Source of the DNA: Anaerolineae bacterium
GTDB taxonomy: Bacteria; Chloroflexota; Anaerolineae; Epilineales; Epilineaceae
Assembly: GCA_038913135.1 (NCBI GenBank)
Contig: JBCLES010000012.1
Span: 1,036 to 65,035 of the forward strand
Direction of reading: 5' to 3'
Length of the DNA stretch: 64,000 bases
Shown here: piece after piece, positions 12,752 to 49,642 of the stretch
Layout of the letters: each line of letters begins with the position of its first letter
How positions within the stretch are numbered: the first letter of the stretch is position 1
The notes under the pieces: generated by a model
Database searches by the model: none
What the model was told of the DNA's origin: nothing
What the model saw: only the letters and a program-made list of their open reading frames with translations
Program-made: the position numbers and the translations under genes

Positions 12752-12858
12752 CCCACACTCCCGTCGTCGGCGCGCGATGTGCCGCTCTGTTTGCAATGAT
12801 ATCAACACTCGGGCCTTACTGGCGCGGACGGCTAGTAGTCCGATATTCCATGCCCGTT

Positions 12859-18948: not shown

Positions 18949-19235
18949 GCAGCGCGCGACCATACCTTTCTGGAGAGCAACTGGGCGCACCGTGCCCACC
19001 AGACGCACTTGTCAACCTTCGATCGGCTGCGTCCGACACGATTGCGTAGGCATTCTATCACTCGCCGTAGACGAAGCGATCGCACGGCATTCCCTTGGGC
19101 TATCAGGTGCTCCATCTGCTAGAATCTCAGGTTGGGCGGCGATCGGGTGCGTCGGCCCTATTGGGCTGTTCGGCGACAATCCGACCTCCGCCCGCTCGCT
19201 CTCTCCCGCCCCGCGCGACCTGTGAGCACTTTGCG

Positions 19236-20315
19236 ATGCGCACTCACCAGCAACCAACTACGCAAGACACTCCGCAATCGATCGAGGACAAGCCTCTTCG
19301 GGTCGGATCCAGTTCGGTCAGTTGGGCCTTGCTTATTGCAGGGACGATTGCTCTCGGAGGTTGCTCGAACGTCGCGCCTCCGCCGTCGCCGGCATCGGAA
19401 TCGACCGCGACCCCCGTTCCGCCTGACGCCGCCGCGCTCGCTACCCTAAGCTCCGCGGCGGCCGTCGACAGCCGTGCGATCATGTGCGGAGAAGAAAACC
19501 TTGCCGCCTTGAGAGTGGTTTGGGAACGCTATCCTACCGACGCAATTGTTCGAGAGCAGCTTCGCGGTCAACTCGAGACCTGTAAGCAATGGGACGGCCT
19601 TGCGGAGGTGCTCGAAGCCAAGCCGGAAACCGAGCGAACGGACGCCGACCGGCTTGAACTAGCCGGGCTCTACCTTCGACATCTAGGGCGCTTCGCCGAT
19701 GCTGAGGCGGTCGCGGTCCCACTCGCCGAAGGGCGACCGGACAACATGGATATCGTGAGCCTGGCCGCCGCAAGCCTGTACTATCAGGATCGGGTCGAAG
19801 AAGCTGTGCCGATGATCGATCGCTTGTGGGATCAGATGGTCGCGGCGCAGAACTCGGACATCATGACGATGCGCGCGGTGGCATTCCTTGACGCGGGGAA
19901 TCCCGGGCGCGCCGTAAAGATCCTCGATCAAGTGATCGAGCTGTATCCGCGGCACACATTTGCTTTGACCACGCTCGCTCGTGCAAGGCAAGATATGGGC
20001 GACGAGGCTGGAGCGCAAGAGGCGCGCGAGATCAATGAAGTCATGCGCACAGAGGCCAGCTTGAAGGCGCGCCAGGGCCAACGGATGGCCGACCTGACAC
20101 GGACAATCCAAGCAGCATGGGATGCCGGCGAGTTCGAAGAGGTCGAGCGGAACGCATTGCGGATGCTCGACATCGCGCCGGAGGAGACGGCTCCCGAGAT
20201 CTATCGCGTCCTTGGAGATACTTACAATGAACTGGGCCGCCCCGAAGATGCACGAGCAGCCTTCGAACAGGCGGCCGAACTGGAGCGAACCCTGAAAGCG
20301 GAAAGCGAAGGATGA
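19236..20315 (+). CDS. TPR-repeat lipoprotein
   Basis: Lipobox LIAGTIALGGC. Helical repeat content of TPR type (…AVPMIDRLWDQ…, …YNELGRPEDARAAFEQAAEL…). Start at MRTHQQP. Confidence 0.6.
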   Translation: MRTHQQPTTQDTPQSIEDKPLRVGSSSVSWALLIAGTIALGGCSNVAPPPSPASESTATPVPPDAAALATLSSAAAVDSRAIMCGEENLAALRVVWERYPTDAIVREQLRGQLETCKQWDGLAEVLEAKPETERTDADRLELAGLYLRHLGRFADAEAVAVPLAEGRPDNMDIVSLAAASLYYQDRVEEAVPMIDRLWDQMVAAQNSDIMTMRAVAFLDAGNPGRAVKILDQVIELYPRHTFALTTLARARQDMGDEAGAQEAREINEVMRTEASLKARQGQRMADLTRTIQAAWDAGEFEEVERNALRMLDIAPEETAPEIYRVLGDTYNELGRPEDARAAFEQAAELERTLKAESEG

Positions 20316-20392
20316 GCGGATCGAGCGAAAATCGTAGGTCGCTCGGTCTTCGTAGACCTTCATCCCTCGCCGGTCGAGTCAATCGCCGGCGA

Positions 20393-22183
20393 ATGATCGC
20401 GACCGTGAGCATGTTCGGCCTACTCCTTCATGGCTGTGATCAAACAGCCGAACCGCCGACCGAGGAATTTCCAGATCCGTCGGCTCCGACCGTTTCGGCT
20501 GGCGATGCAACCGACACTCCGATTTCGACAGATCTTCGATTCACCGACGGCACGTCTGATTCGGGCATCGACTTCACGCACCTCCCAACGTATACGGAGG
20601 AGCGCTTTATGCCGGAGATTCAAGGGGGCGGCGTCGCGATAATCGACATCGACAGGGATGGAGATCCGGACATCCTCGCGATCAACAGCGGAGCGTTGCG
20701 CTCGGACGCTCGCCCACCTGGCGGAACCAGCCGACTCTACTTGAACGACGGCAGCGGGCGCTTTACAGATGTGACTGCGGAGTGGGGATTGACGTCGGCA
20801 GAGGCAGGCTATGGGATGGGGGCCGCGGTCGGGGACGTGGATGGCGACGGCCGGCAGGATGTCTTTCTGACGGCGTTCGACGAAGGTGATCGACTGCTGC
20901 TCAATACGGGTGCCGGCTTCGTCGATGCGACGGATGAGTATGCCATCCTTCCGGACCCGAAGTGGTCCACTAGTGCCGGATTCCTCGACATGGATAACGA
21001 CGGGGATCTCGATCTCTACGTGGCGCGCTATTCCGAATACGTCCTAGACGAAGCGCAGCGGTGCTACGAGGGCGACCTGCATATCTATTGCACGCCGCAC
21101 TTGTTCGACGCGATCGCAGATAGGCTTCTCCGCAATGACGGCGGCAAGTTCCTCGACGTCACGGACGCCGCCGGAATAGGCGAGCGCCTTGGCCGGGGGC
21201 TTGCCTTCGTCGTCGGCGATATCGATCTCGACGGGGACTCCGACGTGTATGTCGCGAACGATCTGAGCCCCAATCATCTTTGGCTAAACGACGGCTCAGG
21301 CTCGTTCGCGGACATTGCTCCTCGTGCCGGAGTTGCCATGAGCGTCCACGGGATAGCCGAAGCAGGGATGGGCGCGGACATGGGCGACATTGACGGCGAC
21401 GGCAAATTCGATCTGGTCACCACGAATTTCGAGAGTGAGACAACCAACGTACATCTTCAGCAAGACGATCTCACCTTTCGCGAGGTTTCCGACGCGGCGG
21501 GAGTAGGCGAGGCCGCCCGAGCGAGACTCAAGTGGGGCATCGATCTATTCGATGCAGACAACGACGGCGACGAGGACTTGATCGTCGCCAACGGGCACAT
21601 TTATGACAACGCTGGTGAATTCTCCGGCGGTCCGACATTCCCACAGCAAAATACGCTGTACGAGAATCTCGGCGGCGGCGAGTTCATGGACGTGAGCGAT
21701 GTTTCGGGCGACGCTCTCACGGATCGCCAGGTCAGTCGAGGCCTGGTGACCAGCGATCTCGATGGCGACGGCGATCTCGATGCACTCGTCGGCAACAACG
21801 GCGGCACGCTGCAAGTGCTTGTCAACGAGAGTCGGTCGGTCGGGCACTGGGTCGGATTGTGGCTCGAAGGCGCCGGCCAAGGGGTAGAGACCAGCGCCGG
21901 ACCAGGGGCGAACAAGAGCGCGATCGGCGCGCGCATCGAAGCGCGCATCGGCGATCACACGCTGATCCGTCAAGTGACCAATGCCCTGAGCTACCTCTCG
22001 GCGGGCGATCTAAGGGTGCATATCGGGCTCGGCGATGCGGCGTCGATCGACGAGCTGACGATTCTTTGGCCGGGCGGCGGAGTGCAGACGATCACGGGGC
22101 TCGCCGCGGATACGTACTACCGTATCGTTCAAGGGGCGGAACCGGAGCCGTTCACAGCTGGCGAGCGGGTGATCGCGCCGTAA
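20393..22183 (+). CDS. CRTAC1-family protein: FG-GAP/VCBS beta-propeller repeats plus C-terminal ASPIC/UnbV domain; lipoprotein
   Basis: Lipobox LLLHGC. Repeated DxDGDGxxD calcium-binding FG-GAP motifs (IDRDGDPDI, VDGDGRQDV, MDNDGDLDL, IDLDGDSDV, IDGDGKFDL, ADNDGDEDL, LDGDGDLDA). The ASPIC/UnbV C-terminus ends …RVHIGLGDAASIDELTILWPGGGVQTI. Confidence 0.8.
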   Translation: MIATVSMFGLLLHGCDQTAEPPTEEFPDPSAPTVSAGDATDTPISTDLRFTDGTSDSGIDFTHLPTYTEERFMPEIQGGGVAIIDIDRDGDPDILAINSGALRSDARPPGGTSRLYLNDGSGRFTDVTAEWGLTSAEAGYGMGAAVGDVDGDGRQDVFLTAFDEGDRLLLNTGAGFVDATDEYAILPDPKWSTSAGFLDMDNDGDLDLYVARYSEYVLDEAQRCYEGDLHIYCTPHLFDAIADRLLRNDGGKFLDVTDAAGIGERLGRGLAFVVGDIDLDGDSDVYVANDLSPNHLWLNDGSGSFADIAPRAGVAMSVHGIAEAGMGADMGDIDGDGKFDLVTTNFESETTNVHLQQDDLTFREVSDAAGVGEAARARLKWGIDLFDADNDGDEDLIVANGHIYDNAGEFSGGPTFPQQNTLYENLGGGEFMDVSDVSGDALTDRQVSRGLVTSDLDGDGDLDALVGNNGGTLQVLVNESRSVGHWVGLWLEGAGQGVETSAGPGANKSAIGARIEARIGDHTLIRQVTNALSYLSAGDLRVHIGLGDAASIDELTILWPGGGVQTITGLAADTYYRIVQGAEPEPFTAGERVIAP

Positions 22184-23052: not shown

Positions 23053-23646
23053 TCATCGACCAGAACCAGGCCCAACCCGGATGTCGAGTCCGCCATCGCC
23101 CGAGTACTCTTCCGGATCGATGCCGGCCGCTTCGGCGATCACGCGTCGCGCCCCGTCGATGCGTTCGCCATGAGCGCTGATCCGGCTGATCGCGCCGATC
23201 ATTTCACGGGTAAGGCAGAGCGATGAGTCGACCTCGCAGGCTTGCATGAGCTTGACCGATTCGATGAAAGTGTCGACCAACCCGGCCTCCGCCAGAAGGA
23301 GTCCTTCCGCGCAGGCGGGCGCATCCATGCCGAGCAGGCGGTCGCGGCTCGCTTCGAGCGCCGCGAGGTCTATCGAGTCGATCGCCGCTCGCATGCCGCC
23401 GGCATCACTTTCCAAGTCGCCGAGCGACTCGAAGTCCTCGAGCGCGGTGTCCAAACGTTCTTCTTGTCCGTCGAGAAAGGCGCGCACGACCACTTCTTCG
23501 CACTCTCCTTCCACCGTCACGGCCTCCAACGGTTCCATTTCCGGAATCGCCTGGCGGACGAAGTATGCGCCGAAGATCCCGCATGCCAAGCCAAGCATGA
23601 GCATCGCACCGCAGCCGATCGCGCCCCATTTCATGCACCCGTTCAT
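23053..23646 (-). CDS. Hypothetical membrane-anchored acidic protein
   Basis: AGGAG lies 9 nt upstream of the ATG at 23646. One N-terminal TM helix. No recognisable domain. Confidence 0.45.
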   Translation of the reverse strand: MNGCMKWGAIGCGAMLMLGLACGIFGAYFVRQAIPEMEPLEAVTVEGECEEVVVRAFLDGQEERLDTALEDFESLGDLESDAGGMRAAIDSIDLAALEASRDRLLGMDAPACAEGLLLAEAGLVDTFIESVKLMQACEVDSSLCLTREMIGAISRISAHGERIDGARRVIAEAAGIDPEEYSGDGGLDIRVGPGSGR

Positions 23647-23854
23647 CGTTAGATACTCCTTGAATCTAGATGGATCCCTTGCCGCCGCCCGCCTTGTCGG
23701 TGGCGAACGCCTGTTCTATACTAGCGTGCGTTCGCACCGGTCGACATTTAGAGGCCTACGCATACTATCATCCGGCGCGGCCATCTACGACGAACCGACC
23801 GCCGCGTTTCGGCCCCACCGCCCGCATCGATCCGCCGTCCTTCCGGAGTCCCTA

Positions 23855-26023
23855 ATGACCATGGCACCGCTCGGTGCCGACGCCGACACCGCGACGAGCG
23901 GACGGCGCGGCGCTTCACGACCGGCAGCGTACGACGCCGGACAAATCACCGAGCTCGGCTTTCCGGAGGCCATCCAAAAGCGCCCCGGCATGTACATCGG
24001 CGGTCGGAGCAACCTTGGCCACCTACTAGCCGAGGCCGTCGACAACGCGATCGACGAAGCGATGGCCGGCAGCTGCACGCGGATCGACGTCGTCCTGGCC
24101 GCGGACGGGAGCGCATCGGTGGTCGATGACGGCCGCGGCGTCCCGGTCGCCATTCATCCTGACAGCGGCAAATCCGCTCTCGAGATGGCCTTCACACAGC
24201 TCCACACGGGCGGAAAATTCGATTCGGAGAGCTATTCGACCAGCGGCGGCCTGCACGGCGTCGGCATCAAAGCAACGAATGCCCTGAGCGAGTGGCTCGA
24301 AGTGACCGTCCGCCGCGACGGCGTCCGCTACCGCCAGCGCTACGAGCACGGTCACGTTGTCAGCCCGGTCCAGATCCTCGACCCGGAAAGCGATAAGGTC
24401 ATCGGCGAGGTCGGGATGAAGGGGGAGGCGGCCGTCGTCGCGCTGCACAAGAAGCAGCCGCGCATCACGAGCACTCGAGTCGCCTTCAAGCCGAGCACGG
24501 AGTACCTGGAGGTCACGACCTTCGACTTCGTCACGATCGCACACAGGCTGCAGGTCGCCGCCTATCTGATACCGGGCCTGCTGCTCAGCTTGCGCGACGA
24601 GCGCGGTGACGAAGTCCTCGAGCGCACCTACCACGCCGAGGGCGGCATCCTCGCGTACGTGGAGCACCTCAATGCGGGCCGTCGGCTCATCCACAAAGAG
24701 CCGATCCGCGTAAACGGGACGACCGAAAGCGGGGCGCGGATCGATCTGGTGTTCCAATACCACGACGCGGACGACGAGGAGATCCTCTCCTTCGTCAACA
24801 CCATCCCGACGGGCGAAGGCGGCACTCACGTATCGGGCTTCCGCGCAGCCCTGACCAAGGCCGTGAACGTCTTCGGTATCGAAAAGAAGCTGATCAAGGA
24901 CAAGGAGTCGGTCACCGGCAAGGACACGACCGCCGGGCTGACGGCCGCTCTATCGCTGATGATGTCGGATCCGGAGTTCACGTCGCAGACCAAGACACAG
25001 CTCGGCACGAGCGAGATTCAAGGCCAGGTCCTTTCTGTCGTTTACGAACAAGTCCTTGACCGCTTCCGCAAGGACACCAACCTCGGCCGCCGCGTTGTCG
25101 AACGCTGTCTTGCGGCGTCGCGGGCGCGCGAGGCCGCGGCCAAGGCGCGCAGCCTAGTCATGCGTAAGAGCGTCCTCGACGTCATCGATACCGGCCTGCC
25201 GGGCAAGCTGGCCGACGTGGCGAAGAACGCCGACACCAACAACACGATCCTCTACATCGTGGAAGGCGACTCCGCAGGCGGCAGTTGCAAACAGGCTCGC
25301 AACAACCAGTATCACGCCATACTCCCATTGCGCGGCAAGATCCTGAACACGGAGCGCGCTCGTCTGAACCGCGCACTCTCGAACACGGAGATCAAGGCGA
25401 TTGTATCCGCGATCGGGGCCGGGGTGGCGCGCGACTTTGAGGTCGACGACATGCGTTACGGCGGCATCGCGATCTTCGTCGACGCCGACGTGGACGGCCT
25501 GCACATCATGACCCTACTCCTGACCCTTTTTTGGCGCTTCATGCGGCCGATGATCGACGCTGGCCGCCTCTTTGTCGCCCGTGCGCCGCTGTATCAGCTC
25601 ACCTCCGCCCGCCGCTCGGTATACGCCTATTCGGATTGGGAGCGCGACCAGATTCTCTCGAAATGGGGCCGAAAGGGTGTGACCATCCAGCGCTACAAAG
25701 GGCTCGGCGAGATGAATCCATCGCAATTGAAGAGTACCGTCTTCGCCGTGCCCGAGGTGGACGGCCGCCAGACCCCGTTCGCCAACCCAAACCTCTACCG
25801 AGTCACGGTCGATGACGCACACCGAGCCAATCAGATGGTCCAATTGTGGATGGGCGCGCGCGTCGCACCGCGCAAAGCGCGCCTGATGCGTATCTGGGAC
25901 GGCGAGGCGACGTACGGCGCCGACGAGAACGGCAACTTGGATGGTCAGTTCGAAAACGGCGCGGACGATTCGGACGACTTCGACGAGATCGAGACTCAGC
26001 TCGGGTTGCTCGAGGACGAATGA
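23855..26023 (+). CDS. gyrB: Type IIA topoisomerase ATPase subunit (GyrB/ParE-like), divergent
   Basis: GHKL ATPase N-terminus (GLHGVGIKATNALS). Toprim region (LYIVEGDSAGGS, …DADVDGLHIMTLLLTLFWRF…) and QRYKGLGEM. GGAG lies 7 nt upstream of ATG 23855. Several normally invariant blocks are substituted and the tail is acidic. Confidence 0.85.
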   Translation: MTMAPLGADADTATSGRRGASRPAAYDAGQITELGFPEAIQKRPGMYIGGRSNLGHLLAEAVDNAIDEAMAGSCTRIDVVLAADGSASVVDDGRGVPVAIHPDSGKSALEMAFTQLHTGGKFDSESYSTSGGLHGVGIKATNALSEWLEVTVRRDGVRYRQRYEHGHVVSPVQILDPESDKVIGEVGMKGEAAVVALHKKQPRITSTRVAFKPSTEYLEVTTFDFVTIAHRLQVAAYLIPGLLLSLRDERGDEVLERTYHAEGGILAYVEHLNAGRRLIHKEPIRVNGTTESGARIDLVFQYHDADDEEILSFVNTIPTGEGGTHVSGFRAALTKAVNVFGIEKKLIKDKESVTGKDTTAGLTAALSLMMSDPEFTSQTKTQLGTSEIQGQVLSVVYEQVLDRFRKDTNLGRRVVERCLAASRAREAAAKARSLVMRKSVLDVIDTGLPGKLADVAKNADTNNTILYIVEGDSAGGSCKQARNNQYHAILPLRGKILNTERARLNRALSNTEIKAIVSAIGAGVARDFEVDDMRYGGIAIFVDADVDGLHIMTLLLTLFWRFMRPMIDAGRLFVARAPLYQLTSARRSVYAYSDWERDQILSKWGRKGVTIQRYKGLGEMNPSQLKSTVFAVPEVDGRQTPFANPNLYRVTVDDAHRANQMVQLWMGARVAPRKARLMRIWDGEATYGADENGNLDGQFENGADDSDDFDEIETQLGLLEDE

Positions 26024-26089
26024 AAGCTCTGACGGCGGCCGCGGGGCGCGTCGTCCGCACCGACCGAACTCATGAATGAGGAAAACACG

Positions 26090-28603
26090 ATGTTCAAGGC
26101 ATTCGACATCGACATCCAGAGCCTGCCGTTCACCCCGGAGCTCGACCGTGCCTACCGGCTTTACGCCGCGAAGACGATCGAGGATCGGGCGCTGCCCGAT
26201 GTGCGCGACGGCTGCAAGCCGGTTCAGCGCCGCATCCTTTACGCGATGTACGATATGGGACTGCGCTCTGACCGGCCGCAGAAGAAGTGCGCCCGTATCG
26301 TCGGCGAGGTCCTCGGCAAGTACCACCCGCACGGCGACCAGGCGGTCTACGGGGCGCTCGTCCGAATGGCGCAGAGCTTCACCATGCGTGCAGCGCTCAT
26401 CGATGGCCAGGGTAATTTCGGTTCGATAGATGGCGACGGCGCAGCGGCCATGCGCTACACCGAGGCCCGCCTCAGTGCCCTCGGTGAGTCGCTTTTGGCC
26501 GACATCGGGGCCGATACCGTCGACTTCCAGGACAATTTCGACAATTCGTTGTCCGAGCCGGTTGTGCTGCCGGCTGCCTTCCCCAACCTTCTCGTCAACG
26601 GCTCCTCCGGCATCGCCGTCGGGATGGCCACGAACATCCCACCGCATAACCTGGGCGAGATCGCGGATGCGGTCCAACACGTGCTCCGACGGTGGAGCGC
26701 GCGCGACAACATCACGGTTGAAGAATTGATGGAGCATGTGCCGGGGCCGGACTTCCCGACCGGCGGCATTGTTTATCGCTATCGCGACGAAGGTGGTGGC
26801 GAGATCGTCGACAGCATCAAGCGCGCGTACGAGACCGGTGCCGGACGCATCATCACTCAAGCGCGGATGCATATCGAGGATATCGGCGGCGGCAAACAGA
26901 ACATCGTGATCTCGGAACTGCCTTACATGGTGCAGAAGTCGACGCTCTTGGAACGGATCGCGAAAGAGGCGAAGGACGGCCGCATCGTCGGCCTCACCGA
27001 TCTCCGCGATGAAAGCGACTACGATGACGGGATGCGCGTCGTGGCCGAGGTGTCGCGGACGGCCAAGGCGCCGGAGGTGATGGCTCAGCTGCTGAAGTTC
27101 TCGCAGCTCCAAGAGACATTCGGCGTCAACGCGATGGCGCTGGTGCCGGACGACACGTCGGACCCTGAGCGCAGCGGCGTTCGACCGCAGCGCCTAACGC
27201 TGCGCGACATGCTCGTCCACTTCGTCGCTTATCGTCTCGACGTCATCGAACGCCGTACCCGCCACGAACTCGCACAACGCGAGGCCAGGCTGCATATCGT
27301 CGACGGCCTGCTCAAGGCGCTCGACGCAATTGACGAGGTCGTCGCGCTCATCCGTAAGAGCAAGAACGCCGAGACGGCACGCGAAAACTTGATTAAGGCG
27401 CTGAAGCTCAGCGACGAACAGGCGCGCGCGATCCTTGAAATGCCGCTGCGTCGCCTCACATCGCTGGAGATCGGATCCCTTCGCGACGAAGGCAAGTCCC
27501 TTCGCGCCCGCATCACGGTCTTGAAAGGCATCCTGGAAAGCGAGGCCAAGCGCCTTGCGGTGGTCGGTGAGGAAACAAGGGAGATCCGGGAGGCTTTCGC
27601 GACGGGCCGCAGGACTGTGATCATCGACACTGAGGAGATGGCGGCCGGATCGCAAGTAGTGATGGAGGCCGATCTTCGAATGCCTTCGAGCCCACAGATC
27701 ATCGTCCTGACCACGAACGGGATCGAGCGGCGTGACGCGGCCGGCTTCCGCCAGGCTCGACCGGCCCCCGGCCTGACGAGCCGCGCGACGACGAGCCAGG
27801 TCCTTTCGGTTGTGGCGCAGCCCAACGATCAAATCATCTTGTTCTCGAGCGCCGGCCGAGCTTGGCGGAACCAGGTCGGTTTCGTTCCGGACAAGGCGAC
27901 ATTCAATCAGCTCGGCTTGGTCCGCGACGAGACGATCGTCGGCGCAGCCGTCCAGCCCGCCCAGCCGAACGGTGCCCAAGACAACTTGACGGCGATCTTC
28001 GCGACACGCGCCGGACGCATCAAGCGCACCCTTCTCGGAGACCTCTCGCTCACAGCCGGAATCTGGTCAACAGTGGTAGGGCTGCCGGACGAAGGTGACG
28101 CGGTGTTGGTGGCGGCGGTCGCCGGCGATGATGCCGAGGTGGTCTTCGTAACTTCCAGCGCGCTCGTTCTGCGCACGGCGGCCGGCGCGGTCAATCCGCA
28201 GGCCAGCGGAACGGCCCGTGGGGTGGCCGGGATAGGTCTGAAGGGCCGCGACATTCCTATCGCCGCGGCCATAGTTCCCGCCAATCCGTCGGATGATCTT
28301 TCGATCTATGTGATCTCCGAGATGGGCTACGTCAAGCGCGTACCTTACTCCGAGTATCCGCCCAAGGGCCGCGGCTCACAAGGCGTACAGACGCTAAAGA
28401 TCACCCCCGCCACCGGACGGTTGGTCGCGGCGGCCATCGGCCCGGCTGCGGATGGCAGTGGCCTCGATCTGATCTACGCAAACGGAAAGCGCCAGCGAAT
28501 CCCTGTCGAAGATTTACCGGCGGACAATAGATATCGGCAAGGGGCTCGGCTGGTCGACCTCTTGGAGGCCGGGGCGCCGGTGGAAAGGGCGGTCGTGGCT
28601 TAG
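26090..28603 (+). CDS. gyrA: Type IIA topoisomerase DNA-cleavage subunit (GyrA/ParC-like)
   Basis: [40 protein letters not shown], and active-site [10 protein letters not shown] (Tyr). Start preferred at ATG 26090, which has GAGGAA 6 nt upstream (the alternative is 26072). I could not find a canonical GyrA-box (QRRGGKG). Confidence 0.85.
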
Positions 28604-28706: not shown

Positions 28707-31700
28707 CTACTCCACCACCAGCGCCCTTACGAACCCCATCGGCGACACCCACCGCGTGTGGTACTCCTTCCAATCGTCCGCATGCATTTTGTAAACCGGA
28801 TCGTCCCTGTACGATCCGGCGTCGCCGTAGACCACCTGGTCCACGTACTCCGGCCGATCGTGTGACGGCAACGGATGCACCGTCTTGGAGTAGGCCGTGT
28901 TGAAGTCGCCATCCTTCTCCCAACCCACGCTGACGAATATGTAGTCACGGACCATGTTCTTCGCCGGCTTCGGCGGCGCTTTGAAGGACAAACGGACTTC
29001 ATCGCCCGCGTTCGCGATCACATAACGATCGTCCATTCCAGACACAAGCTCCCGGACGTCGCCGTAGCGCGTGTAAAAACCCTCTAGATCGAGCCAGATC
29101 GGCTCAGTCGAGGCGATGCGCTCATAGTCGGGAATCTCCGGCTTGGTGACCGGCGCCGGCTCGACGCCCCTCGGGGTGTAATGGGTAGTGTACGAAAAGC
29201 CCCTCGCGCGAAGCTCGGCCGTTTCGGCCGGCATGTCGTGACGCACCAATTCGGCCGACGGGACACCTATCGCCGTGCCGAGTCGGTCCCAATACACCTC
29301 GAGGTTCGTCGAAAGTCGGAGCTTTCGCTCACCGGCAAAACCGGCCGGCCATGCGCCGCTGATATCGATGAGCATCGTCTTGCGCTTCCCGGCCGGAAAA
29401 CCGAGGTCCGCTTGAAGCTCGCGCCAGCCGTCGGGCGCCGCCTCGTCGGCAACCTCGAGCCGCAGTCCGCGTGGCGGAGCGTGCGACCCCTGGCTGAGCG
29501 CGATGTTGATAGAGCTGTCGGTCGGGCGGATCCAACCTTGGGCGATCAGGTATGAAGGCTCGTCTTTCGCCTGATCGGAAAGCGCGTCGGCCTCGCCAAG
29601 CGTTATTTCGATCGAGTGATTGTTCGCCACGCCCTGATACTTGCCCAGAGCAAAAGTGTCGATGAAGACTTCGTCCAGCTCTGTCGCCATGACGGTAACA
29701 TCCCGCCCCTCGTCGTCGATCACCTCCGCGGGCGGCGACACCGGGCCCGTAATGCGGACTTCAATCGGCGGCGGCGGGATCGAGAAGCGTTCATCGACCC
29801 AAATCTCGGTGTTCAAAGGATGATCGAAGGCGATCAGTCCGAATTCGTCGAAGTAGTGCGTTTCCCACAACTCGGCCGTGATCGAGGCATCCAAGCGTCC
29901 CTCCCGCTCCTGCAATTGATCGCCCCTGACCTTCACCCAATCGCGCGTCATCACCACGCCGGCTGTGACCTGAGCGTTGATTCGCAAGCCCAAAGGTGAG
30001 CGCCACAAAACATCGGTCACGAACGCCATCTCGGTGCCATTCCAGGCGTAAAGCCACGGACAGGATCCCTTGAGGCGCTGCTCAGCCGTGATGATCGATG
30101 CCTTTGCGAGATCGAACTCGCCCTGCGCCGACCCATTCGGCCACCGCAAGCGGACCACATTCGCAGCCGGGTGTTCGCCGAGACCGAAGTGGATAACGGG
30201 GCTGTCGATCGGGCGCTTCTGATACAGAAGTCCGGCACGTAGGTCGATTTCGCCACCGATGCCGAAAGCGTTGTTCCGCTGATCGCCGGTCAAGATGGCC
30301 TTTGGCTGGATCGCGAGCCAACTGTAGCCCTTCGCTCCGCCGCCATTGCCGAGAATGTGCGGCTTCCCGTCCGCTGCGCCGAGAAGATCCAGTTTCCCGT
30401 CCCCATCGATATCTGCCACCGACGTCACGCTGATCACTGCCGTGTCGGTGTTCTGAAGCTCCGTCAACACGCCGTCAGGGCCTGCAAGCCAGATAGTTGT
30501 CGCGCCGTCTGTGGAGACGATAAGGTCAGCCGCGCCGTTGTTATCTAAGTCCGCGTAGACCAAATTAGACTCTCCTGAGCCCAAGGGAGCGGGAAGGCGC
30601 GCGAGTTCACTTGTGGTCCACGCGTTCTCCGCTCCAGACCGGTCTAGGCTAACGCTTTCTATCGACCCGTCTGCTCGCAGCACGATGAGATCGAGGACGC
30701 CGTCAAGGTCCGCGTCCGCGACGGCAAGCGCCCGAGCCGACTCGGCCGCCGAATCCAGCGGGACCGAAATGTAGCGGTCGGAGCGCTCGTTGGTCAGGAG
30801 CTGCAACTGAGATTCGCCGTCGATCAGAGCGAGATCCGGATCGCCGTCGCCATCGACGTCCGACCAAACCGCTGCACGCACCCCTTGGACGTCCGGCAAC
30901 GGTGACTCTGCGGCCCATGTGCCGTCTCCCAGATTGCGCAGAAATATCGGTGCCGAAGCCGCGGTTCCCAGGAGCAGGTCAAGGTCGCCGTCGAGTTCGG
31001 AATCGAACACCCAAGCTCCCGTGTAGACGCCATCCACCACATCTGAAGCCAGCCCGCTTTGGGGCGTCCCATCAACCCACGCGCCCGACTCATTCACTGC
31101 CCAGATGCGCACGCCGCCGGTCCCGGCGGTCACGACCTCCAGGGTACCGTCGTTGTCCGCGTCTAGAACCGCAGCTCCTTGCGCCGTGACCCCGGTGGCG
31201 TCGAGCGGCAGTGCATCTTCAGGAAGCGTGAGGATCGCCTGCGCCTCGCCTGCCGGCGCACCGCCGAAAATCCGCACCCCGTCCTCCGCCCCGATCACCA
31301 GGATGGGCGTTAGATCCGCGCCGCTCGGCACGGCCCGGGCCCAGGAAGTGGTTTCCGGCGATGGTGCGACCACCGCGCGGAAGCGCAACTCCATGTCCGC
31401 CTCCGCCGGCTGAGCGCTCGGCGTAGGGAGCGACATGAAGACCTCGATCGGCTCACCAACCGCGGTTGGCGGACTCTTCAGCATCGCGAGACTCTGCTGA
31501 TGCGGCGGTGTGGAAAGTAGGAGGTTGTTCATCCCGAGGAGCGCGATGGAAGTCGCTCGCGCATCGCCGGCCGCTGCAGCCGCGCGTGCCTTCTCCAACT
31601 CGGCGCGTGCATCGTCCGGCCAGGCCGCGGAGAGTGCGGCAAGACGGTCGAGTGTAGCCTTCGCGTCCCCCCCACCCGATTCGGCTTCGAGCACGGCAAG

Positions 31701-32345
31701 ATCGATTATTGCGACGATGTTATCCGGCTGTGCCTCGATAATCAGCTCGAGCAACCCCCGGGCCTCGGCCGTGACGGCCTCTTCGTCTGAGCGGCGCAGT
31801 TCCTCGAAGAGCGTGTAGCGTGCTCGCACGTTCCCGTTGTCGAGCTCGAGCGCGCGGCGCAACTCGGCTTCAGCCGTTTCCCGGTCGCCTGAGCGGATCG
31901 CGCTGATCGCGGACAAGTGAGCGATCCGGCTGTCGCCCGGGGCAAGCCGCGTTGCCTCAGCAAGCGCCGCCGCCGCCGGCTCAGTCGATCCGAGCCTCAT
32001 CTCCGTCAACGCCAGATTTGCCCATCCGGACGCCTCGTTCGGAACGAGTTCGGTCGTCCGCGTGAATGCGTCGCGGGCAGTTTCGTTATCGCCGACGTGG
32101 ATCGCGGTTACGCCGGTATAGAATGCGGCGACGGTGTCCTGATAAGTCGCTTCGTCCACTTCGATCGTCGGGGCCGGCGACGGACCTTCGACGGCGTCGT
32201 CCTCGGCGTCATCGCAACCGGTGATCGCAACGGAGAGAGCCAGCGCGGCGGCCAGCGAAGCAAGCCGCGGAAACAGGAGCGGTATCGAACGGTCCGCACC
32301 CGCGCGAGCCGGTCGGAAGTCGGTGAACCATCCCAAAGCTATCAT
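28707..32345 (-). CDS. Giant lipoprotein fusing TPR region, FG-GAP/VCBS repeats, an ASPIC/UnbV domain and a ~470-aa C-terminal domain of unknown function
   Basis: Lipobox LALSVAITGC. TPR-like helices (…LGSTEPAAAALAEATRLAPGDSRIAHLSAISAIRSGD…). FG-GAP motifs (LDADNDGTLEV, SDVDGDGDPDL, ADADLDGVLDL, ADLDNNGAADL, ADIDGDGKLDL). ASPIC/UnbV signature (VIHFGLGEHPAANVVRLRWPNGS). Start set at MIALGW… (32345); the 121 extra codons in the track are Arg/Ser-rich. Confidence 0.75.
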   Translation of the reverse strand: MIALGWFTDFRPARAGADRSIPLLFPRLASLAAALALSVAITGCDDAEDDAVEGPSPAPTIEVDEATYQDTVAAFYTGVTAIHVGDNETARDAFTRTTELVPNEASGWANLALTEMRLGSTEPAAAALAEATRLAPGDSRIAHLSAISAIRSGDRETAEAELRRALELDNGNVRARYTLFEELRRSDEEAVTAEARGLLELIIEAQPDNIVAIIDLAVLEAESGGGDAKATLDRLAALSAAWPDDARAELEKARAAAAAGDARATSIALLGMNNLLLSTPPHQQSLAMLKSPPTAVGEPIEVFMSLPTPSAQPAEADMELRFRAVVAPSPETTSWARAVPSGADLTPILVIGAEDGVRIFGGAPAGEAQAILTLPEDALPLDATGVTAQGAAVLDADNDGTLEVVTAGTGGVRIWAVNESGAWVDGTPQSGLASDVVDGVYTGAWVFDSELDGDLDLLLGTAASAPIFLRNLGDGTWAAESPLPDVQGVRAAVWSDVDGDGDPDLALIDGESQLQLLTNERSDRYISVPLDSAAESARALAVADADLDGVLDLIVLRADGSIESVSLDRSGAENAWTTSELARLPAPLGSGESNLVYADLDNNGAADLIVSTDGATTIWLAGPDGVLTELQNTDTAVISVTSVADIDGDGKLDLLGAADGKPHILGNGGGAKGYSWLAIQPKAILTGDQRNNAFGIGGEIDLRAGLLYQKRPIDSPVIHFGLGEHPAANVVRLRWPNGSAQGEFDLAKASIITAEQRLKGSCPWLYAWNGTEMAFVTDVLWRSPLGLRINAQVTAGVVMTRDWVKVRGDQLQEREGRLDASITAELWETHYFDEFGLIAFDHPLNTEIWVDERFSIPPPPIEVRITGPVSPPAEVIDDEGRDVTVMATELDEVFIDTFALGKYQGVANNHSIEITLGEADALSDQAKDEPSYLIAQGWIRPTDSSINIALSQGSHAPPRGLRLEVADEAAPDGWRELQADLGFPAGKRKTMLIDISGAWPAGFAGERKLRLSTNLEVYWDRLGTAIGVPSAELVRHDMPAETAELRARGFSYTTHYTPRGVEPAPVTKPEIPDYERIASTEPIWLDLEGFYTRYGDVRELVSGMDDRYVIANAGDEVRLSFKAPPKPAKNMVRDYIFVSVGWEKDGDFNTAYSKTVHPLPSHDRPEYVDQVVYGDAGSYRDDPVYKMHADDWKEYHTRWVSPMGFVRALVVE

Positions 32346-32530
32346 TGCATTCCCCCAGGGCCCGGAGTCGACCGCGGGTCGGCCGTCCAGCCGGACATTA
32401 TACACCGGGCACGGCGCCTCGGCGCCCTCACTGCCCGACATTTCCAGCGAGGCGGTGTAGTAGTCGAAGCATCCCGATCGGCACCCTCGCGGGATCCGAC
32501 GACCGCTCTCCCTTAAATCCAGGATGTTCG

Positions 32531-33022
32531 ATGAAAACACTGATCGTGCTGAGACATGCGAAGGCCGTTCGGCCGGAGTCAGATCTACACGACTTCGATC
32601 GTGGCCTGACCGAACGTGGCCGGCGAGACTCGCGGGCTGTCGGAGAATGGCTTGCCGAAGAGGGTCTTCAGCCGGACATGGTGATCGCGTCGAGTGCGCT
32701 GCGAACACGGGAAACCGCGGAGTTGGTGGCGGAAGCCGCCGAGCTGGACGATGCGCCGTTACTCCTCGAAGCCCTGTACGGGTCGGACGAAGCTACGTGT
32801 CTGGCTATGCTCAGCGCCCACGCCGAAGGCTACGACACGGTCTTGATAGTCGGTCACAATCCCACGATGGAGGGCCTGGTCGAGCGCTTGACCGGGCAAG
32901 CGGAGACCATGAAGACCGCCGCGCTTGCTCATGTCGAACTCGATGTAGAAGCGTGGGAGTCGATCGATCGCAGCGTCGAATGCCGCCTCATCTCGATGTG
33001 GCGGCCGGCGAAGTCTGCATGA
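32531..33022 (+). CDS. sixA: Phosphohistidine phosphatase SixA-like (histidine phosphatase family)
   Basis: MKTLIVLRHAKA (RHG-type catalytic motif), about 163 aa. AGGA lies 7 nt upstream of ATG 32531. Confidence 0.75.
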   Translation: MKTLIVLRHAKAVRPESDLHDFDRGLTERGRRDSRAVGEWLAEEGLQPDMVIASSALRTRETAELVAEAAELDDAPLLLEALYGSDEATCLAMLSAHAEGYDTVLIVGHNPTMEGLVERLTGQAETMKTAALAHVELDVEAWESIDRSVECRLISMWRPAKSA

Positions 33023-46309: not shown

Positions 46310-49300
46310 ATGGTGCCAACGCTATCTGTGCGGACCGATGGGCAAACCAAGCCGGCTGGCAAGCGATCGCCCGCCCGCCAGCTGCGCGCTTTCGCGGAGC
46401 ACGCAGCTCTTGCTTCCGCGATCGCTGTCCCGCTCGTCTTTTCCGTATTTACGGATCGGATCTTCGAAGCGGAGAAGGCCGGTCTGATACGCGTGCTCGG
46501 CGCCGCGGCGCTTATCGGATCGCTCGCGGCATTGTGGCCCTCTTTCCGAAGCGAGCCTGTTGTCGCGAACACAGACGCGCCTGCTCGGGCGGCTGCCACG
46601 GCTCGATTCCGTCAACTCATCAGCGTTCAGGGCAGCGCACTTACAATAGCCCTTGTCGCCGTCCTACTCTCTGAACTCGTCTCCACCGCGGTATCCGTCG
46701 CGCCGATGCCGAGCATCTGGGGGAGCTACGATCGCGCTCAGGGCCTGGTCACGACTGCTGCGCTTATCGCGCTGGCTTCGGCCGCCGCCTTGATCGCCAT
46801 GCAGCCTCGCGGTCCATCGCGCCTAGCGGACGCAATCGGTCTCACAGTCCTACCCACCGGACTTTACGCTCTCATCCAGCGCGCCGGCCTCGACCCCATC
46901 CCTTGGCTCGGCGACGTGGTTATCCGGGTGTCGGGAAGCGCCGGAAGCAGCACCCTTTTCGCGGCCCACTTGGCTATCGCGCTCCCGTTTACGGCGCTCG
47001 GAGCTGTGTCCGCATGGAAAGCAGTCACGCGGCCGACTAACATCCCGCAACACGATCCCGAGATCGATCCCACGGGCCGGGGTCCCGCCGGCCGGCGCCT
47101 TCATAACCATCGCCTTCTTGACCTCCGCCTCGCCATCCGGCTTCTCGCGTTAGCCGTCGGGGTCACAGCGCTTGTCCTCTCCGGCAGCCGTGGTCCTGCG
47201 CTCGGCCTGGCGGCCGGGTTCTCGGTCGCGCTTCTCGCGTCGGCCGCCATAGCGGGCAGCTGGCGCCGGGCGCTCGCGGTGGTAGCAGCCGTGTTCGGGG
47301 GCATCGCGTTCGTGATCGCCCTCAACCGTGCGCCGGCCGCATTCAGCCCGATCGTCGACCTGCCCATGATCGACAGGCTGTCTACCGCTTTAGACCCTGG
47401 TCGAAGCACCTCGCGCGTACGGCTGCTCCTGTGGGAGGGTTCTGTCGATGCGATCGCATCGAATCCGGACCGATTGGCCTTCGGCTTCGGCCCCGAAACC
47501 ACCGAGCTAGTATGGGCGCCGTACTATCCATCCATTCTCGCCTACGATGAACCGCGCGGCTGGGTGCCCGATCGAGCGCATTCCTTCGCGCTCGATACTC
47601 TGCTGACCAACGGCGTGTTCGGTCTGATCGCACTTCTCATGCTGTTCGGCGCCGCCGCGATAGCATGCCTCGATGTTCTGGGCCTGACAGTTACACCGGC
47701 GACCCGCCGGAGCGTCATCGCCTCGATGCTCTTCGGCGGGCTACTATGCGGTGCGATCGCGGGGCTGCTCGACGGCGCGTGGCGCATCATTGCTCCCGTT
47801 TCCGGCCTCGGGCTTGTCGCCGGGCTCTCTATCTGGCTCGCGGCCGCCACATGGCGGCGACGAGCGGCGGGGCTTTCTTTCGCGTCGAAATCCGAAGAAC
47901 CGTCTTCGAGCGCCGAATTCGGCGATGCTGGCTTCGCCGTCGCGGCTCTCGGCGCTCTCGTAGCCCACTTTGTCGAGCTCCAAGTGAGCTTCGCGGTCGG
48001 CGCTACGCGTTCGGTCTTCTTCCTGGTATGCGGCGCGCTGCTCGGACTCGCAATCCGAAGGGCAAGATCGTCTACCGAAAGCGGTGGTTCTCGCGGCGAT
48101 CGACCGGCCTCCGCGGCGCTAGACCTCCCAGTTAGAAAGGGCGACTCCCGCCTCCTACCATCGATCATCGCCATCACTGCTATCTACTCCTTCGCCCGGC
48201 CGGGCCTCACCGGCGGCGGTGCGCCAATCGTTGTGGCGATCGTCGTCGCGTCGGCGATAGGTTGCCTTTTTGCGCTCGCCAACCGACCCACAGAAACGTG
48301 GCATGCGCTTCTTCGACTCGCTGTGATCGCCGGCGCATACGGAGCGGTGCACTTTTTCGTGATCGCAAGACTCACCGTAGGGCCGGAGGAAGCCGTCCTG
48401 GGCTCGGCGACATCGCTCGCCCTCTACGTCGCCTCGCTCCTGGGCCTCATCGCATACGAGGTTGCCGGCGCAACCGTGTCCGTACCCAAGTCCGAGGCAG
48501 GGCGCGCGATCGATGATCTCGGTTCGGCGCACGGCACAGGCGGTCCGCACGGTACGCGCGTCGGCAATTCGTTCTCGGGTCGGCACGTCGCAACCGGGCT
48601 CGCGGCGCTTTCGGCTTTCGCCCTTGCCGTCCCCTTATGGATTCTCCCATCGACCGCCGACGCGCTCCAGAAGGAGGCTCGTCTAGCCTGGGAGGCGCCC
48701 GTGCCGGACTTGCGGGCACGCGGAGAGAGCGGGCGTGCCGAGTCTTTGCTGAGTCGGGCACGGGAGCGCTATGCACGCGCCGCGCGGCTAGTTTCGTACC
48801 AGCCGCGTCATGCCTTCGCCGAAGCATTCGCCGCCGAAGTTCACGGCGACATCGTGAGCGAACGCTTGGACCGCGCGGTTGCGCAAAGCAACCTGGGCGA
48901 GGAATTCGACGTGCCCGGCGGACCGGGGGAGTACTCGCCAGGGCTGTTGGGCGGCGACACTCTGCGGTGGGCCAAAGAGCGTGACAGGGCCTTCGAACTA
49001 GCGCTCGGGCACATCGCCGGCGCGGGCAGGCTCATGGGTCCGTCGCCCAGCCCGCCCATCGCTCGCGCCCGAGCCTTGCGAGTGTGGGCTGAGCGCACGC
49101 GCACCGATGCGCAGCGCTCCGAGCGTCTCGACACAGCCGCGTCCGCGTACCATGAGGCCATCGCCGCAGCCCCGAACTGGCCCGAGGTTCGCGAAGAGGC
49201 CGCGCGGACCGCTCTGCTGCGTGGACTGCCGGATGAAGCGGTCGCTATGTGCGCGGAGGCGCTTCGAATCGACCCTTTCTACTCACGTTGCCACGCGACC

Positions 49301-49642
49301 TTGGCTAGGGCCTACGCGGCCGCCGGCGACGATGAGGCGGCCGCGGAAGCATGGTCCGATTACTTCAGCGACTCGCGCAACGCCGGCGACGCCGACGCCT
49401 ATCGCGAGCGGCTCAGGACGCTTCTTGCCTTGGGTCGGACCACGGCCGCCTTGGACGCTGCGCGCGACGTTCTTCGCATTGCGCCAGACGACGCGCGGAC
49501 ACATGCCGACTTGGCCGTACTTCTCGAGCGTAGCGGCGATCTGGATGCGGCGCGCGATTCGGCGGCCACCGGAGCGCTCCTTGCACCCAACGATCCAGGG
49601 ATTTCGGCTCTGGTCGAACAGCTCGGTCAGCGGCAGGAGTGA
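46310..49642 (+). CDS. O-antigen ligase-like (Wzy_C) polytopic membrane protein with a large C-terminal TPR-repeat domain
   Basis: Wzy_C signature around LVLSGSRGPALGL, with multiple TM helices in the first ~700 aa. C-terminal TPR-like helices (…AVAMCAEALRIDPFYSRCHATLARAYAAAGDDEAAAEAW…). Confidence 0.65.
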   Translation: MVPTLSVRTDGQTKPAGKRSPARQLRAFAEHAALASAIAVPLVFSVFTDRIFEAEKAGLIRVLGAAALIGSLAALWPSFRSEPVVANTDAPARAAATARFRQLISVQGSALTIALVAVLLSELVSTAVSVAPMPSIWGSYDRAQGLVTTAALIALASAAALIAMQPRGPSRLADAIGLTVLPTGLYALIQRAGLDPIPWLGDVVIRVSGSAGSSTLFAAHLAIALPFTALGAVSAWKAVTRPTNIPQHDPEIDPTGRGPAGRRLHNHRLLDLRLAIRLLALAVGVTALVLSGSRGPALGLAAGFSVALLASAAIAGSWRRALAVVAAVFGGIAFVIALNRAPAAFSPIVDLPMIDRLSTALDPGRSTSRVRLLLWEGSVDAIASNPDRLAFGFGPETTELVWAPYYPSILAYDEPRGWVPDRAHSFALDTLLTNGVFGLIALLMLFGAAAIACLDVLGLTVTPATRRSVIASMLFGGLLCGAIAGLLDGAWRIIAPVSGLGLVAGLSIWLAAATWRRRAAGLSFASKSEEPSSSAEFGDAGFAVAALGALVAHFVELQVSFAVGATRSVFFLVCGALLGLAIRRARSSTESGGSRGDRPASAALDLPVRKGDSRLLPSIIAITAIYSFARPGLTGGGAPIVVAIVVASAIGCLFALANRPTETWHALLRLAVIAGAYGAVHFFVIARLTVGPEEAVLGSATSLALYVASLLGLIAYEVAGATVSVPKSEAGRAIDDLGSAHGTGGPHGTRVGNSFSGRHVATGLAALSAFALAVPLWILPSTADALQKEARLAWEAPVPDLRARGESGRAESLLSRARERYARAARLVSYQPRHAFAEAFAAEVHGDIVSERLDRAVAQSNLGEEFDVPGGPGEYSPGLLGGDTLRWAKERDRAFELALGHIAGAGRLMGPSPSPPIARARALRVWAERTRTDAQRSERLDTAASAYHEAIAAAPNWPEVREEAARTALLRGLPDEAVAMCAEALRIDPFYSRCHATLARAYAAAGDDEAAAEAWSDYFSDSRNAGDADAYRERLRTLLALGRTTAALDAARDVLRIAPDDARTHADLAVLLERSGDLDAARDSAATGALLAPNDPGISALVEQLGQRQE

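Follow-up and report, generated by a model that had tools for sequence, protein, structure and literature searches.

The 64,000-nucleotide stretch of DNA analyzed here (the window) encodes on its minus strand a 1,212-aa protein whose last 453 residues form a real, independently conserved and confidently folding two-lobed beta-sandwich domain, without a catalogued sequence or structural relative in Pfam, NCBIfam, the PDB, or Foldseek searches against PDB and BFVD. The gene product is probably an exported, lipid-anchored protein of the bacterial CRTAC1 kind. In this cell-envelope protein, which is widespread yet unstudied, the function probably resides in the C-terminal domain, its most conserved part. 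Judging from sequence conservation, we favor, with a probability of about 0.4, the reading in which this domain is the functional center of a CRTAC1-like lipoprotein and holds a thiol-based site, either catalytic or metal/ligand-binding.

Gene structure and domain architecture

The open reading frame spans 28707..32708(-). Translation from ATG 32345, which has a Shine-Dalgarno-like GGGGGA 5 nt upstream, yields 1,212 aa, while the NCBI gene call uses the alternative upstream start, ATG 32441 (1,244 aa). The TATAAT hexamer situated between the two start codons (Table 1) is a possible -10 element and would favor the start at 32345; it was not called by the consensus scan because no -35 element matches, and the promoter and terminator scans yielded nothing above chance.

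Table 1. Location of the gene, its candidate promoter element and the regions of its product in the window.
Feature	Residues	Position	Strand	Basis and remarks
Whole CDS	1-1212 plus stop	28707..32345	-	ORF list, start candidates, end-to-end orthologue alignment
TATAAT hexamer, perfect		32397..32402	-	Read from sequence; 52 nt upstream of ATG 32345, downstream of ATG 32441
Predicted signal peptide with lipobox (...LALSVAITG/C44)	1-44	32214..32345	-	Read from sequence
TPR arm, 13 helices	65-289	31479..32153	-	Pfam, model, Foldseek
Seven-bladed FG-GAP beta-propeller	321-683	30297..31385	-	Pfam FG-GAP_3 and FG-GAP, model, Foldseek
ASPIC/UnbV beta-sandwich	686-753	30087..30290	-	PF07593, phmmer, homologues
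Junction motif K-G-S-C-P-W-L, invariant	759-765	30051..30071	-	Cys762 codon at 30060-30062
Uncatalogued C-terminal domain, 453 aa	760-1212	28710..30068	-	No family match; AlphaFold2 model; conservation

The protein is composed, in this order, of a TPR arm, a seven-bladed FG-GAP propeller, an ASPIC domain and the C-terminal tail; ORF and Pfam analysis thereby confirmed the preliminary description of a TPR-FG-GAP-ASPIC lipoprotein with a long unassigned C-terminal region. The AlphaFold2 model of the mature full-length protein (pLDDT 90.1, pTM 0.89) predicts a compact single body. At the N-terminus a hydrophobic stretch is followed by AITG/C at residue 44, and many orthologues likewise have a hydrophobic stretch and then a lipobox, with Cys in the lipobox column for 75% of the 71 full-length sequences aligned; lipidation at C44 is therefore predicted from the sequence. 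Several Pfam TPR families match at about residues 34-290. The helices of the TPR arm (22-246 in the numbering of the mature-protein model) gave Foldseek matches to TPR and OGT structures, a PDB sequence search also matched TPR, and all NCBIfam matches of the protein are confined to this arm. The propeller matches FG-GAP_3 (PF13517) in four stretches (E 1.6e-21) as well as PF01839; in the model its 28 strands fall into seven groups of four, and a motif scan located five Dx[DN]x[DN]G loops (residues 395, 496, 544, 599, and 645), which are putative calcium-binding loops. The match to UnbV_ASPIC (PF07593) is partial and marginal in the window protein (residues 715-741, 24.3 bits against a cut-off of 23.4) but clear in homologues, most of which carry it as a precomputed annotation.

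Homologues are labeled "CRTAC1 family protein" by NCBI, and the best structural match of the window protein is murine CRTAC1 (cartilage acidic protein 1/ASPIC; PDB 9etn, chain A; Foldseek E 1.6e-16, TM-score 0.63 on the target), in which an FG-GAP propeller with calcium loops likewise precedes an ASPIC/UnbV sandwich. The sequence match to 9etn_A is weak (phmmer E 3e-3, residues 642-740, about 16% identity), and both the N-terminal TPR arm and the 453-aa tail are missing from CRTAC1. CRTAC1 ends in an EGF-like module, whereas no EGF match was found by Pfam in the window protein, which is not of the animal type in this respect. The fungal FG-GAP lectins PVL and AAL2 (PDB 2bwr and 4tqm) share the seven-bladed integrin-type propeller (Foldseek E about 1e-7) but consist of the propeller only, without ASPIC, TPR arm or tail. 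Short bacterial FG-GAP/ASPIC proteins of about 600 aa, encoded beside the long form in many genomes, have the same propeller and ASPIC core; they end some 20 aa after ASPIC, lack both the tail and the TPR arm, and are about 25% identical to the long protein.

One such short protein is encoded in the window (20312-22183), next to a TPR protein (19236-20312), and the long gene had been described as a fused paralogue of this pair. This view found no support. The four-part architecture is kept end to end in at least 70 species from several phyla, the TPR protein and the TPR arm are not significantly similar (E 1.4), and the short protein is related to the long one at only about 25% identity (E 1e-9), which together rule out a recent fusion of the pair (about 19095-22183). 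Sequence comparison instead places the long protein in an old, distinct orthologous group, which always has the TPR arm at the N-terminus and the 453-aa domain at the C-terminus. The divergently transcribed sixA neighbor of the preliminary description stood up: the gene at 32534-33022(+) encodes a 162-aa His_Phos_1 protein (E 3.3e-11), which fits a SixA-like protein. The closest relatives retain the synteny of the window (His_Phos_1, the long gene, and gyrA-gyrB).

The C-terminal domain

The unassigned tail proved to be real, although it is somewhat shorter than the approximately 470 aa given initially: it begins with GSCPWLYAWNG at residue 760. Its composition includes 3.1% Trp, 4.0% Tyr, and 8.4% Asp. 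No Pfam family was found after residue 760 at E<=10, either with the tail alone or in any of 27 homologues; NCBIfam, phmmer and profile searches against the PDB gave no match in the tail, and Foldseek searches against PDB and BFVD gave none with E<=1e-3 and a meaningful TM-score (best PDB E = 5e-3, TM-score <=0.2). The claim that the tail belongs to no catalogued family was thus borne out in all these searches; a confident match to a known hydrolase or peptidase, which would have spoken against it, was looked for and did not occur. No account of the domain, or of an association between FG-GAP and RnfD proteins, turned up in literature searches.

Modeled alone by AlphaFold2, as the preliminary description had suggested, the tail adopts a confident fold (pLDDT 83.6, pTM 0.89) with two beta-sandwich lobes at residues of about 760-1030 and 1034-1212. 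The lobes share a weak repeat involving the loops GW..PTDSSIN and GW.KDGD.NT (hhalign probability 12.5%, E 0.0023), and an internal duplication is weakly supported by this sequence similarity. Invariant loops with a pLDDT of 51-63 in isolation reach 72-91 in the full-length model, a rise that could stem from the different alignment and not from contacts between domains. Hint/intein, Ntn-hydrolase, sortase, L,D-transpeptidase, and cupredoxin folds were considered for the tail, and Foldseek supports none of them.

At 119 of the 453 tail positions conservation reaches at least 95%; this is 26% of the domain, while the share is 10% in the propeller and 3% in the TPR arm. The window protein contains two cysteines in all, the lipobox Cys and C762 (KGSCPW). 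The latter position is occupied by Cys without exception, both in the full-length alignment (71 of 71 sequences) and among homologues (291 of 291), where the motif reads [GSAT]-S-C-[PA]. Divergent subfamilies, at 27-33% identity, retain this Cys as well, and 41 of the 71 aligned sequences have no other Cys beyond residue 60 of the window protein. The [GSAT]-S-C part of the motif falls exactly at the boundary between ASPIC and the tail. Other deeply invariant residues (domain numbering) are D19, E69, D74, D82-H83, R94, D132, R251, D261, T333, R374, and K385-D386-D388 (in whole-protein numbering, D82-H83 are D841 and H842, R94 is R853, and K385-D386 are K1144-D1145), and W9 is the only Trp invariant across subfamilies. 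C762 lies in the first strand of the domain, which is an unusual place for a nucleophile.

Distribution

At least 1,044 database sequences align with 99% of the tail at about 50% identity; together with the confident AlphaFold2 model, this puts it far from chance. An exhaustive profile search with the tail yielded 1,633, 2,967, and 4,439 cluster representatives at E<=1e-30, 1e-10, and 1e-3, respectively, typically 1,100-1,250 aa long with the tail at the very end. Carriers comprise at least 580 species of about seven phyla, always with the domain C-terminal, after ASPIC, and the whole architecture (1,150-1,250 aa) can be aligned from one end to the other, with 38-44% identity. Soil and sediment phyla in which bacterial CRTAC1-like FG-GAP/ASPIC proteins abound include Acidobacteriota, Gemmatimonadota, Armatimonadota, Planctomycetota, Rhodothermales, and Chloroflexota. 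A distinct long CRTAC1-like subgroup is defined here, the most conserved part of which is the uncatalogued 453-aa domain; this domain merits a family model at minimum.

The preliminary description had also raised the occurrence of the tail as a stand-alone protein, and no convincing copy came to light: short versions are ASPIC-bearing fragments or frameshift-split genes. Two short matches on long contigs (P0001 and P0115) are frameshift-split, with FG-GAP fragments just upstream, and four others (P0229, P0235, P0237, and P0252) still contain ASPIC remnants. In one sequence (P0071) the N-terminus is hydrophobic and is not ASPIC, but here the reading frame runs open to the end of the contig.

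Operon context

In about half of the related loci, from seven phyla, the long gene is the first in an operon with genes for a short FG-GAP/ASPIC protein and an RnfD-like protein. The short gene is immediately downstream of the long gene in 32 of 80 loci, and the RnfD-like gene (PF03116, E 1e-7 to 3e-7) follows in 45 of 89 loci from about seven phyla. In one locus (L087) six genes with overlapping ends run in the same direction and encode the long protein, the short CRTAC1-like protein, an RnfD-like protein, an AsnB-like protein (a PP-loop enzyme), a TIGR01210-like radical-SAM enzyme, and a FAD enzyme. Genes for the radical-SAM and FAD enzymes were seen again in 15-16 loci, and that for the AsnB-like protein in seven, in varied positions and orientations, the trio being almost exclusive to Acidobacteriota. 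The best NCBIfam matches of the FAD enzyme are QhpG, GoxB, and LodB, all far below the cut-off, and tryptophan halogenase and geranylgeranyl reductase profiles score it similarly. In one locus of subfamily 2 an overlapping thioredoxin-like gene lies downstream. None of the short operon partner, RnfD-like, AsnB-like, radical-SAM, or FAD genes is present within the 64-kb window; as the closest relatives share the gene order of the window, the operon inference applies to the family rather than to this locus.

Possible function

Both the way in which the tail is conserved and its one invariant cysteine point towards a functional site in this domain, which may be enzymatic or carbohydrate-binding, as the preliminary description proposed. 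In the favored reading the tail would be the functional center of the protein, with the thiol-based site packed against the propeller and ASPIC; the TPR arm would recruit a protein partner, and the propeller would bind either a ligand or a partner. The long protein would, in most lineages, act at the membrane together with the short FG-GAP/ASPIC protein and the polytopic RnfD-like membrane protein; in the lineage of the window these partners do not lie next to the long gene. L,D-transpeptidases and sortases are exported all-beta enzymes with one essential cysteine working with His and Arg or Asp; they offer an analogy only, since the tail shows no Foldseek similarity to them and lacks the motifs SHGC and TLxTC. 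A more far-reaching version, which we regard as doubtful, would make the tail a thiol-dependent enzyme or cofactor-bearing domain of a new extracytoplasmic kind and the active part of an envelope system of three to six genes found in about seven phyla (the long lipoprotein, the short CRTAC1-like protein and the RnfD-like protein, joined in some lineages by AsnB-like, radical-SAM, and flavin enzymes). To our knowledge, no function has ever been proposed for such a system, and we know of no bacterial CRTAC1-like FG-GAP/ASPIC protein with a known function. A catalytic or cofactor-bearing thiol site, if true, would represent a new class of envelope enzyme.

Instead of a functional thiol, the tail could provide a module for binding or scaffolding without catalysis, either lectin-like or dependent on calcium, that caps the propeller, its cysteine being structural or forming an intermolecular disulfide with a partner; we consider this possible, though on balance unlikely. 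The only local Foldseek likenesses of the tail are jelly-roll binding modules, namely the EphA7 ligand-binding domain, CBM27, and the TGF-beta prodomain (the probability reaches 1.0, but with E>=5e-3 and a TM-score <=0.2), and after CRTAC1 the nearest relatives of the propeller are GlcNAc-binding fungal lectins. The loops of the weak lobe repeat resemble calcium or sugar loops, and the invariant KDGDxNT and PTDSSIN sequences look calcium-binding or structural rather than catalytic; moreover, we know of no enzymatic activity of CRTAC1 itself. However, 26% of near-invariant positions across about seven phyla is high for a module of this kind, in exported proteins a single cysteine of absolute invariance more typically serves as a functional thiol, and no conserved cysteine that could pair with it was seen in the RnfD-like partner sequences read.

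The enzymes encoded near the long gene weakly suggest a cofactor of the cysteine tryptophylquinone type, and it is conceivable, albeit improbable, that the Ser-Cys motif carries a post-translational cofactor or cross-link installed by the AsnB-like, radical-SAM, and FAD enzymes. The overlapping six-gene run and the recurrence of these genes agree with this, as do the profiles matched by the FAD enzyme, since QhpG, GoxB, and LodB mature cysteine tryptophylquinone cofactors. Quinoproteins of this type (LodA, GoxA, QHNDH) have a conserved Cys and Trp pair and a dedicated flavoprotein maturase; in the tail the Cys is invariant, but W9 is the only Trp that is likewise invariant across subfamilies, and a QhpG/GoxB-like flavoenzyme is found near the long gene in only 16 loci, its scores being generic for the flavoenzyme class. 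The enzyme trio, moreover, is almost restricted to one phylum and absent from the window. S-C-[PA] also fits the first three positions of [CS]-x-[PA]-x-R, the formylglycine site of type I sulfatases, but at the fifth position Leu, Ala, or Val always takes the place of the required Arg, and the window protein has no sulfatase domain. Self-processing proteins typically cut before Cys, Ser or Thr, and the invariant motif exactly at the domain boundary could in principle be a self-cleavage site (N-to-S acyl shift, Ser/Cys or Gly/Ser) that releases or activates the tail; with no Hint, intein, or Ntn-hydrolase fold detected by Foldseek and a full-length model forming one compact body, we find this quite implausible. 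Least credible is that the tail belongs to an already characterized enzyme family (glycoside hydrolase, lyase, or peptidase) from which it has diverged so far that these searches missed it, given the complete lack of Pfam matches at E<=10 among 27 members and of PDB profile matches, and a high-confidence model without a PDB fold match.

Experimental handles are provided by the one invariant cysteine, the conserved three-gene operon with its membrane partner, and the occurrence of the long protein in a cultured carrier, Roseithermus sacchariphilus (CP030158).

Genes and domains of the long FG-GAP/ASPIC protein and its surroundings in the window
Feature	Window coordinates	Strand	Residues or size	Remarks
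Long gene	28707-32345	-	1,212 aa	TPR arm, FG-GAP propeller, ASPIC, tail
TPR families			~34-290	Pfam
FG-GAP_3 and FG-GAP				Pfam
UnbV_ASPIC			715-741	Pfam, marginal match
Tail	28710-30068	-	760-1212 (453 aa)	no family assigned; Pfam blank past residue 760
TATAAT	32402-32397	-		perfect match
His_Phos_1 protein	32534-33022		162 aa	divergent neighbour of long gene
TPR lipoprotein-like and FG-GAP/ASPIC genes	19095-22183	+	second gene 623 aa	4-nt overlap (ATGA)
gyrB ORF	23246-26023	+	925 aa	as mechanically called
gyrA	26072-28603	+
CotH kinase domain with two lamin-tail and Fn3-associated/chitobiase C-terminal modules	9014-12808	-	1,264 aa
O-antigen-ligase (Wzy_C) membrane domain fused to C-terminal TPR array	46310-49642	+	1,110 aa
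Protein with two von Willebrand factor A domains	61412-63970	-	852 aa

Gene start and domain architecture

The open reading frame of the long gene spans positions 32708 to 28707 according to the ORF list. Translation from ATG 32345, with an SD-like GGGGGA 5 nt upstream, yields the 1,212-aa protein; NCBI annotates the identical sequence from ATG 32441 onwards (1,244 aa). The TATAAT box lies between the two ATGs, which would mildly favour the start at 32345. The N-terminus reads as a lipobox (...LALSVAITG|C44); many orthologues likewise have a lipobox preceded by a hydrophobic stretch, and the C44 column is Cys in 75% of the 71 aligned full-length sequences.

The mature protein (1,169 aa, numbered 43 lower than the full-length protein; alignment of 77 sequences) was modelled with pLDDT 90.1 and pTM 0.89. 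The model contains 13 TPR helices, 28 strands forming seven blades of four, an ASPIC sandwich of six strands, and the tail; a motif scan placed five Dx[DN]x[DN]G calcium-type loops in the propeller. The top Foldseek match was the crystal structure of murine CRTAC1 (9etn_A, E 1.6e-16, TM 0.63 on target), followed by fungal FG-GAP lectins, a Tc-toxin propeller, and TPR proteins, none of the matches covering the tail. The long protein belongs to the CRTAC1-like FG-GAP/ASPIC proteins, already known as a group. Thousands of database sequences bear the tail, with no more specific label than "CRTAC1 family protein" or "hypothetical protein".

The C-terminal domain

The preliminary description had set aside a C-terminal region of about 470 aa as unassignable. 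The absence of a family was borne out, the length being corrected to 453 aa (W 3.1%, Y 4.0%, D 8.4%). At E<=10, neither the tail nor any of 27 homologous tails matched a Pfam family; NCBIfam matches to the long protein were confined to the TPR arm, and searches of all PDB sequences with phmmer and a 27-sequence profile gave chance-level matches only. AlphaFold2 applied to the tail alone (70 homologues) produced a confident all-beta model (pLDDT 83.6, pTM 0.89) of two sandwich lobes, domain residues ~1-270 and ~275-453 counted from residue 760. Foldseek found no match to it in PDB at E<=1e-3 and no meaningful match in BFVD; the top local resemblances, all with query TM-scores <=0.2, were to jelly-rolls of a generic kind (TGF-beta prodomain, EphA7 ligand-binding domain, CBM27). 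The confident match to a well-characterised family that would have refuted the preliminary description was thus not found in the Pfam, NCBIfam, PDB and Foldseek searches, and no description of the domain was found in the literature. By these searches, the tail is a domain family without model, structural relative or literature. Less probably, it is a distant relative of some known enzyme family that escaped these searches.

Between the lobes there is a weak repeat (domain residues 122-201 and 336-403, hhalign probability 12.5%), with motifs "D.RYLD ... GW.HPTDSSIN" and "DDRYVI ... GW.KDGD.NT", which suggests a possible ancient tandem duplication.

Conservation and possible function

In the alignment of 70 full-length orthologues with the window protein, the share of positions conserved at >=95% is 119/453 for the tail, 29/300 for the propeller, and 7/256 for the TPR arm. 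The window protein has two cysteines only, C44 of the lipobox and C762 ("KGSCPW"). The latter is Cys in 71/71 aligned full-length sequences, being in 41 of them the sole Cys downstream of window residue 60, and in all 291 homologues, within the motif [GSAT]-S-C-[PA]. Divergent subfamilies of the same architecture, 27-33% identical, have lost many subfamily-1 motifs; they keep, in domain numbering, S2, C3, P4, L6, W9, G11, D19, E69, D74, D82 (usually with H83 alongside), P84, R94, D132, R251, D261, T333, R374, K385, D386, D388, P399, P401, Y408, and R439. The tail, absent from the family catalogues, is a genuine domain of ancient origin. It is under stronger constraint than any other part of this exported, widespread CRTAC1-like protein and, judging from the alignments, holds the protein's only invariant thiol.

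We infer that the tail is the functional centre of the long protein, with a thiol-based site, either catalytic or binding a metal or ligand, as the likeliest reading. This site would pack against the propeller and ASPIC; recruiting a partner would fall to the TPR arm, and a membrane partner would join in most lineages. The invariant loops have pLDDT 51-63 in the isolated model versus 72-91 in the full-length model, which fits packing on the N-terminal domains, although the different alignment could also cause the rise. There are rival readings: the tail may be a non-catalytic module, lectin-like or calcium-dependent, or the GSC junction at its start may be a site of self-cleavage. Neither a sulfatase formylglycine site nor a cysteine tryptophylquinone-type site shows all of its defining features here: the tail motif lacks the Arg of the former, and for the latter W9 is the sole Trp kept throughout the subfamilies.

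Distribution and origin

The tail as query retrieved at least 1,044 proteins that align over 99% of its length at ~50% identity; in nearly all of them, FG-GAP and ASPIC precede it. A profile run exhaustively against 1.84 billion cluster representatives gave 1,633, 2,967 and 4,439 matches at E<=1e-30, 1e-10 and 1e-3, respectively, typically 1,100-1,250 aa long and ending with the domain. When one genome per GTDB species was scanned, relatives were confirmed in at least 580 stretches. Carriers belong to Rhodothermales and Balneolaceae; Acidobacteriota; Gemmatimonadota; Armatimonadota and Abditibacteriota; Planctomycetota; Latescibacterota; and Chloroflexota, Roseithermus sacchariphilus being the sole cultured organism among those listed.

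The reading frame is 1,100-1,400 aa long in 70 of 80 loci and aligns in one piece to the window protein from residue ~25 to ~1210 at 37-44% identity, so the four-part architecture is an old orthologous group. A fused paralogue of the neighbouring gene pair, as proposed earlier, finds no support: comparison of the TPR protein (19236-20312) with the TPR arm gave nothing significant (E 1.4), and the short FG-GAP/ASPIC protein (20312-22183), which lacks the tail, is ~25% identical to the long protein. Recent fusion of this pair was rejected, as the architecture aligns whole across orthologues. No convincing stand-alone tail was found among the database matches; short matches were frameshift-split genes or fragments keeping ASPIC remnants, and one, ending at a contig edge, could be either form.

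Gene neighbourhoods

In related loci, a conserved operon order was observed: the long protein, a ~600-aa FG-GAP/ASPIC protein (the next same-strand gene in 32/80 loci, often overlapping), and a ~275-aa polytopic membrane protein (45/89 loci, ~7 phyla) with weak but consistent NQR2_RnfD_RnfE similarity, i.e., RnfD/NqrB-like. It occurs in L087 (10001-19829), L002, L004, L014, L018, L030, L043, L086 and ~40 further related loci; no description of it was found in the literature. In L087, six co-directional overlapping genes include three more, encoding AsnB-like PP-loop, TIGR01210-like radical-SAM, and FAD (halogenase/QhpG class) proteins. The radical-SAM and FAD genes were found in 15-16 loci, the AsnB-like one in 7, counts limited by flank length; their positions and orientations vary, and the carriers are mostly Acidobacteriota. 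The tail may alternatively be the site of a protein-derived cofactor or cross-link made by such clustered enzymes. At one subfamily-2 locus (L088:8306-9154), the long gene overlaps at its 3' end with a thioredoxin-like gene (282 aa), a single case that may bear on how the lone cysteine stays reduced.

In some genomes several FG-GAP/ASPIC paralogues, both long and short, stand in arrays (L087:1-8928, L086:17411-23553). The L087 array adjoins the gene of a multihaem (cytochrome c554-like) TPR protein of 926 aa, a hint of redox activity in the periplasm. A short FG-GAP/ASPIC gene lies near the long gene in the related contig L084 too.

No short FG-GAP/ASPIC operon partner, nor RnfD-like, AsnB-like, radical-SAM, FAD or thioredoxin-like partners, were found in the 64-kb window. 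Here the long gene is convergent with gyrB-gyrA and divergent from the His_Phos_1 gene, as had been described for the latter under the name sixA, and the closest relatives (62-74% identity) retain this synteny. GyrB of the syntenic relatives has 719-720 aa, so the first ~200 codons of the gyrB ORF are probably untranslated. The nearest named relative of GyrA (89%), a single contig, is binned as Methylomirabilota, and the next named ones (56-63%), which are many, are from Anaerolineae or Chloroflexi; one bin may be wrong. The host of the window is tentatively placed in an uncultured lineage resembling Chloroflexota. The TPR lipoprotein-like and FG-GAP/ASPIC genes are probably translationally coupled, given their ATGA overlap.
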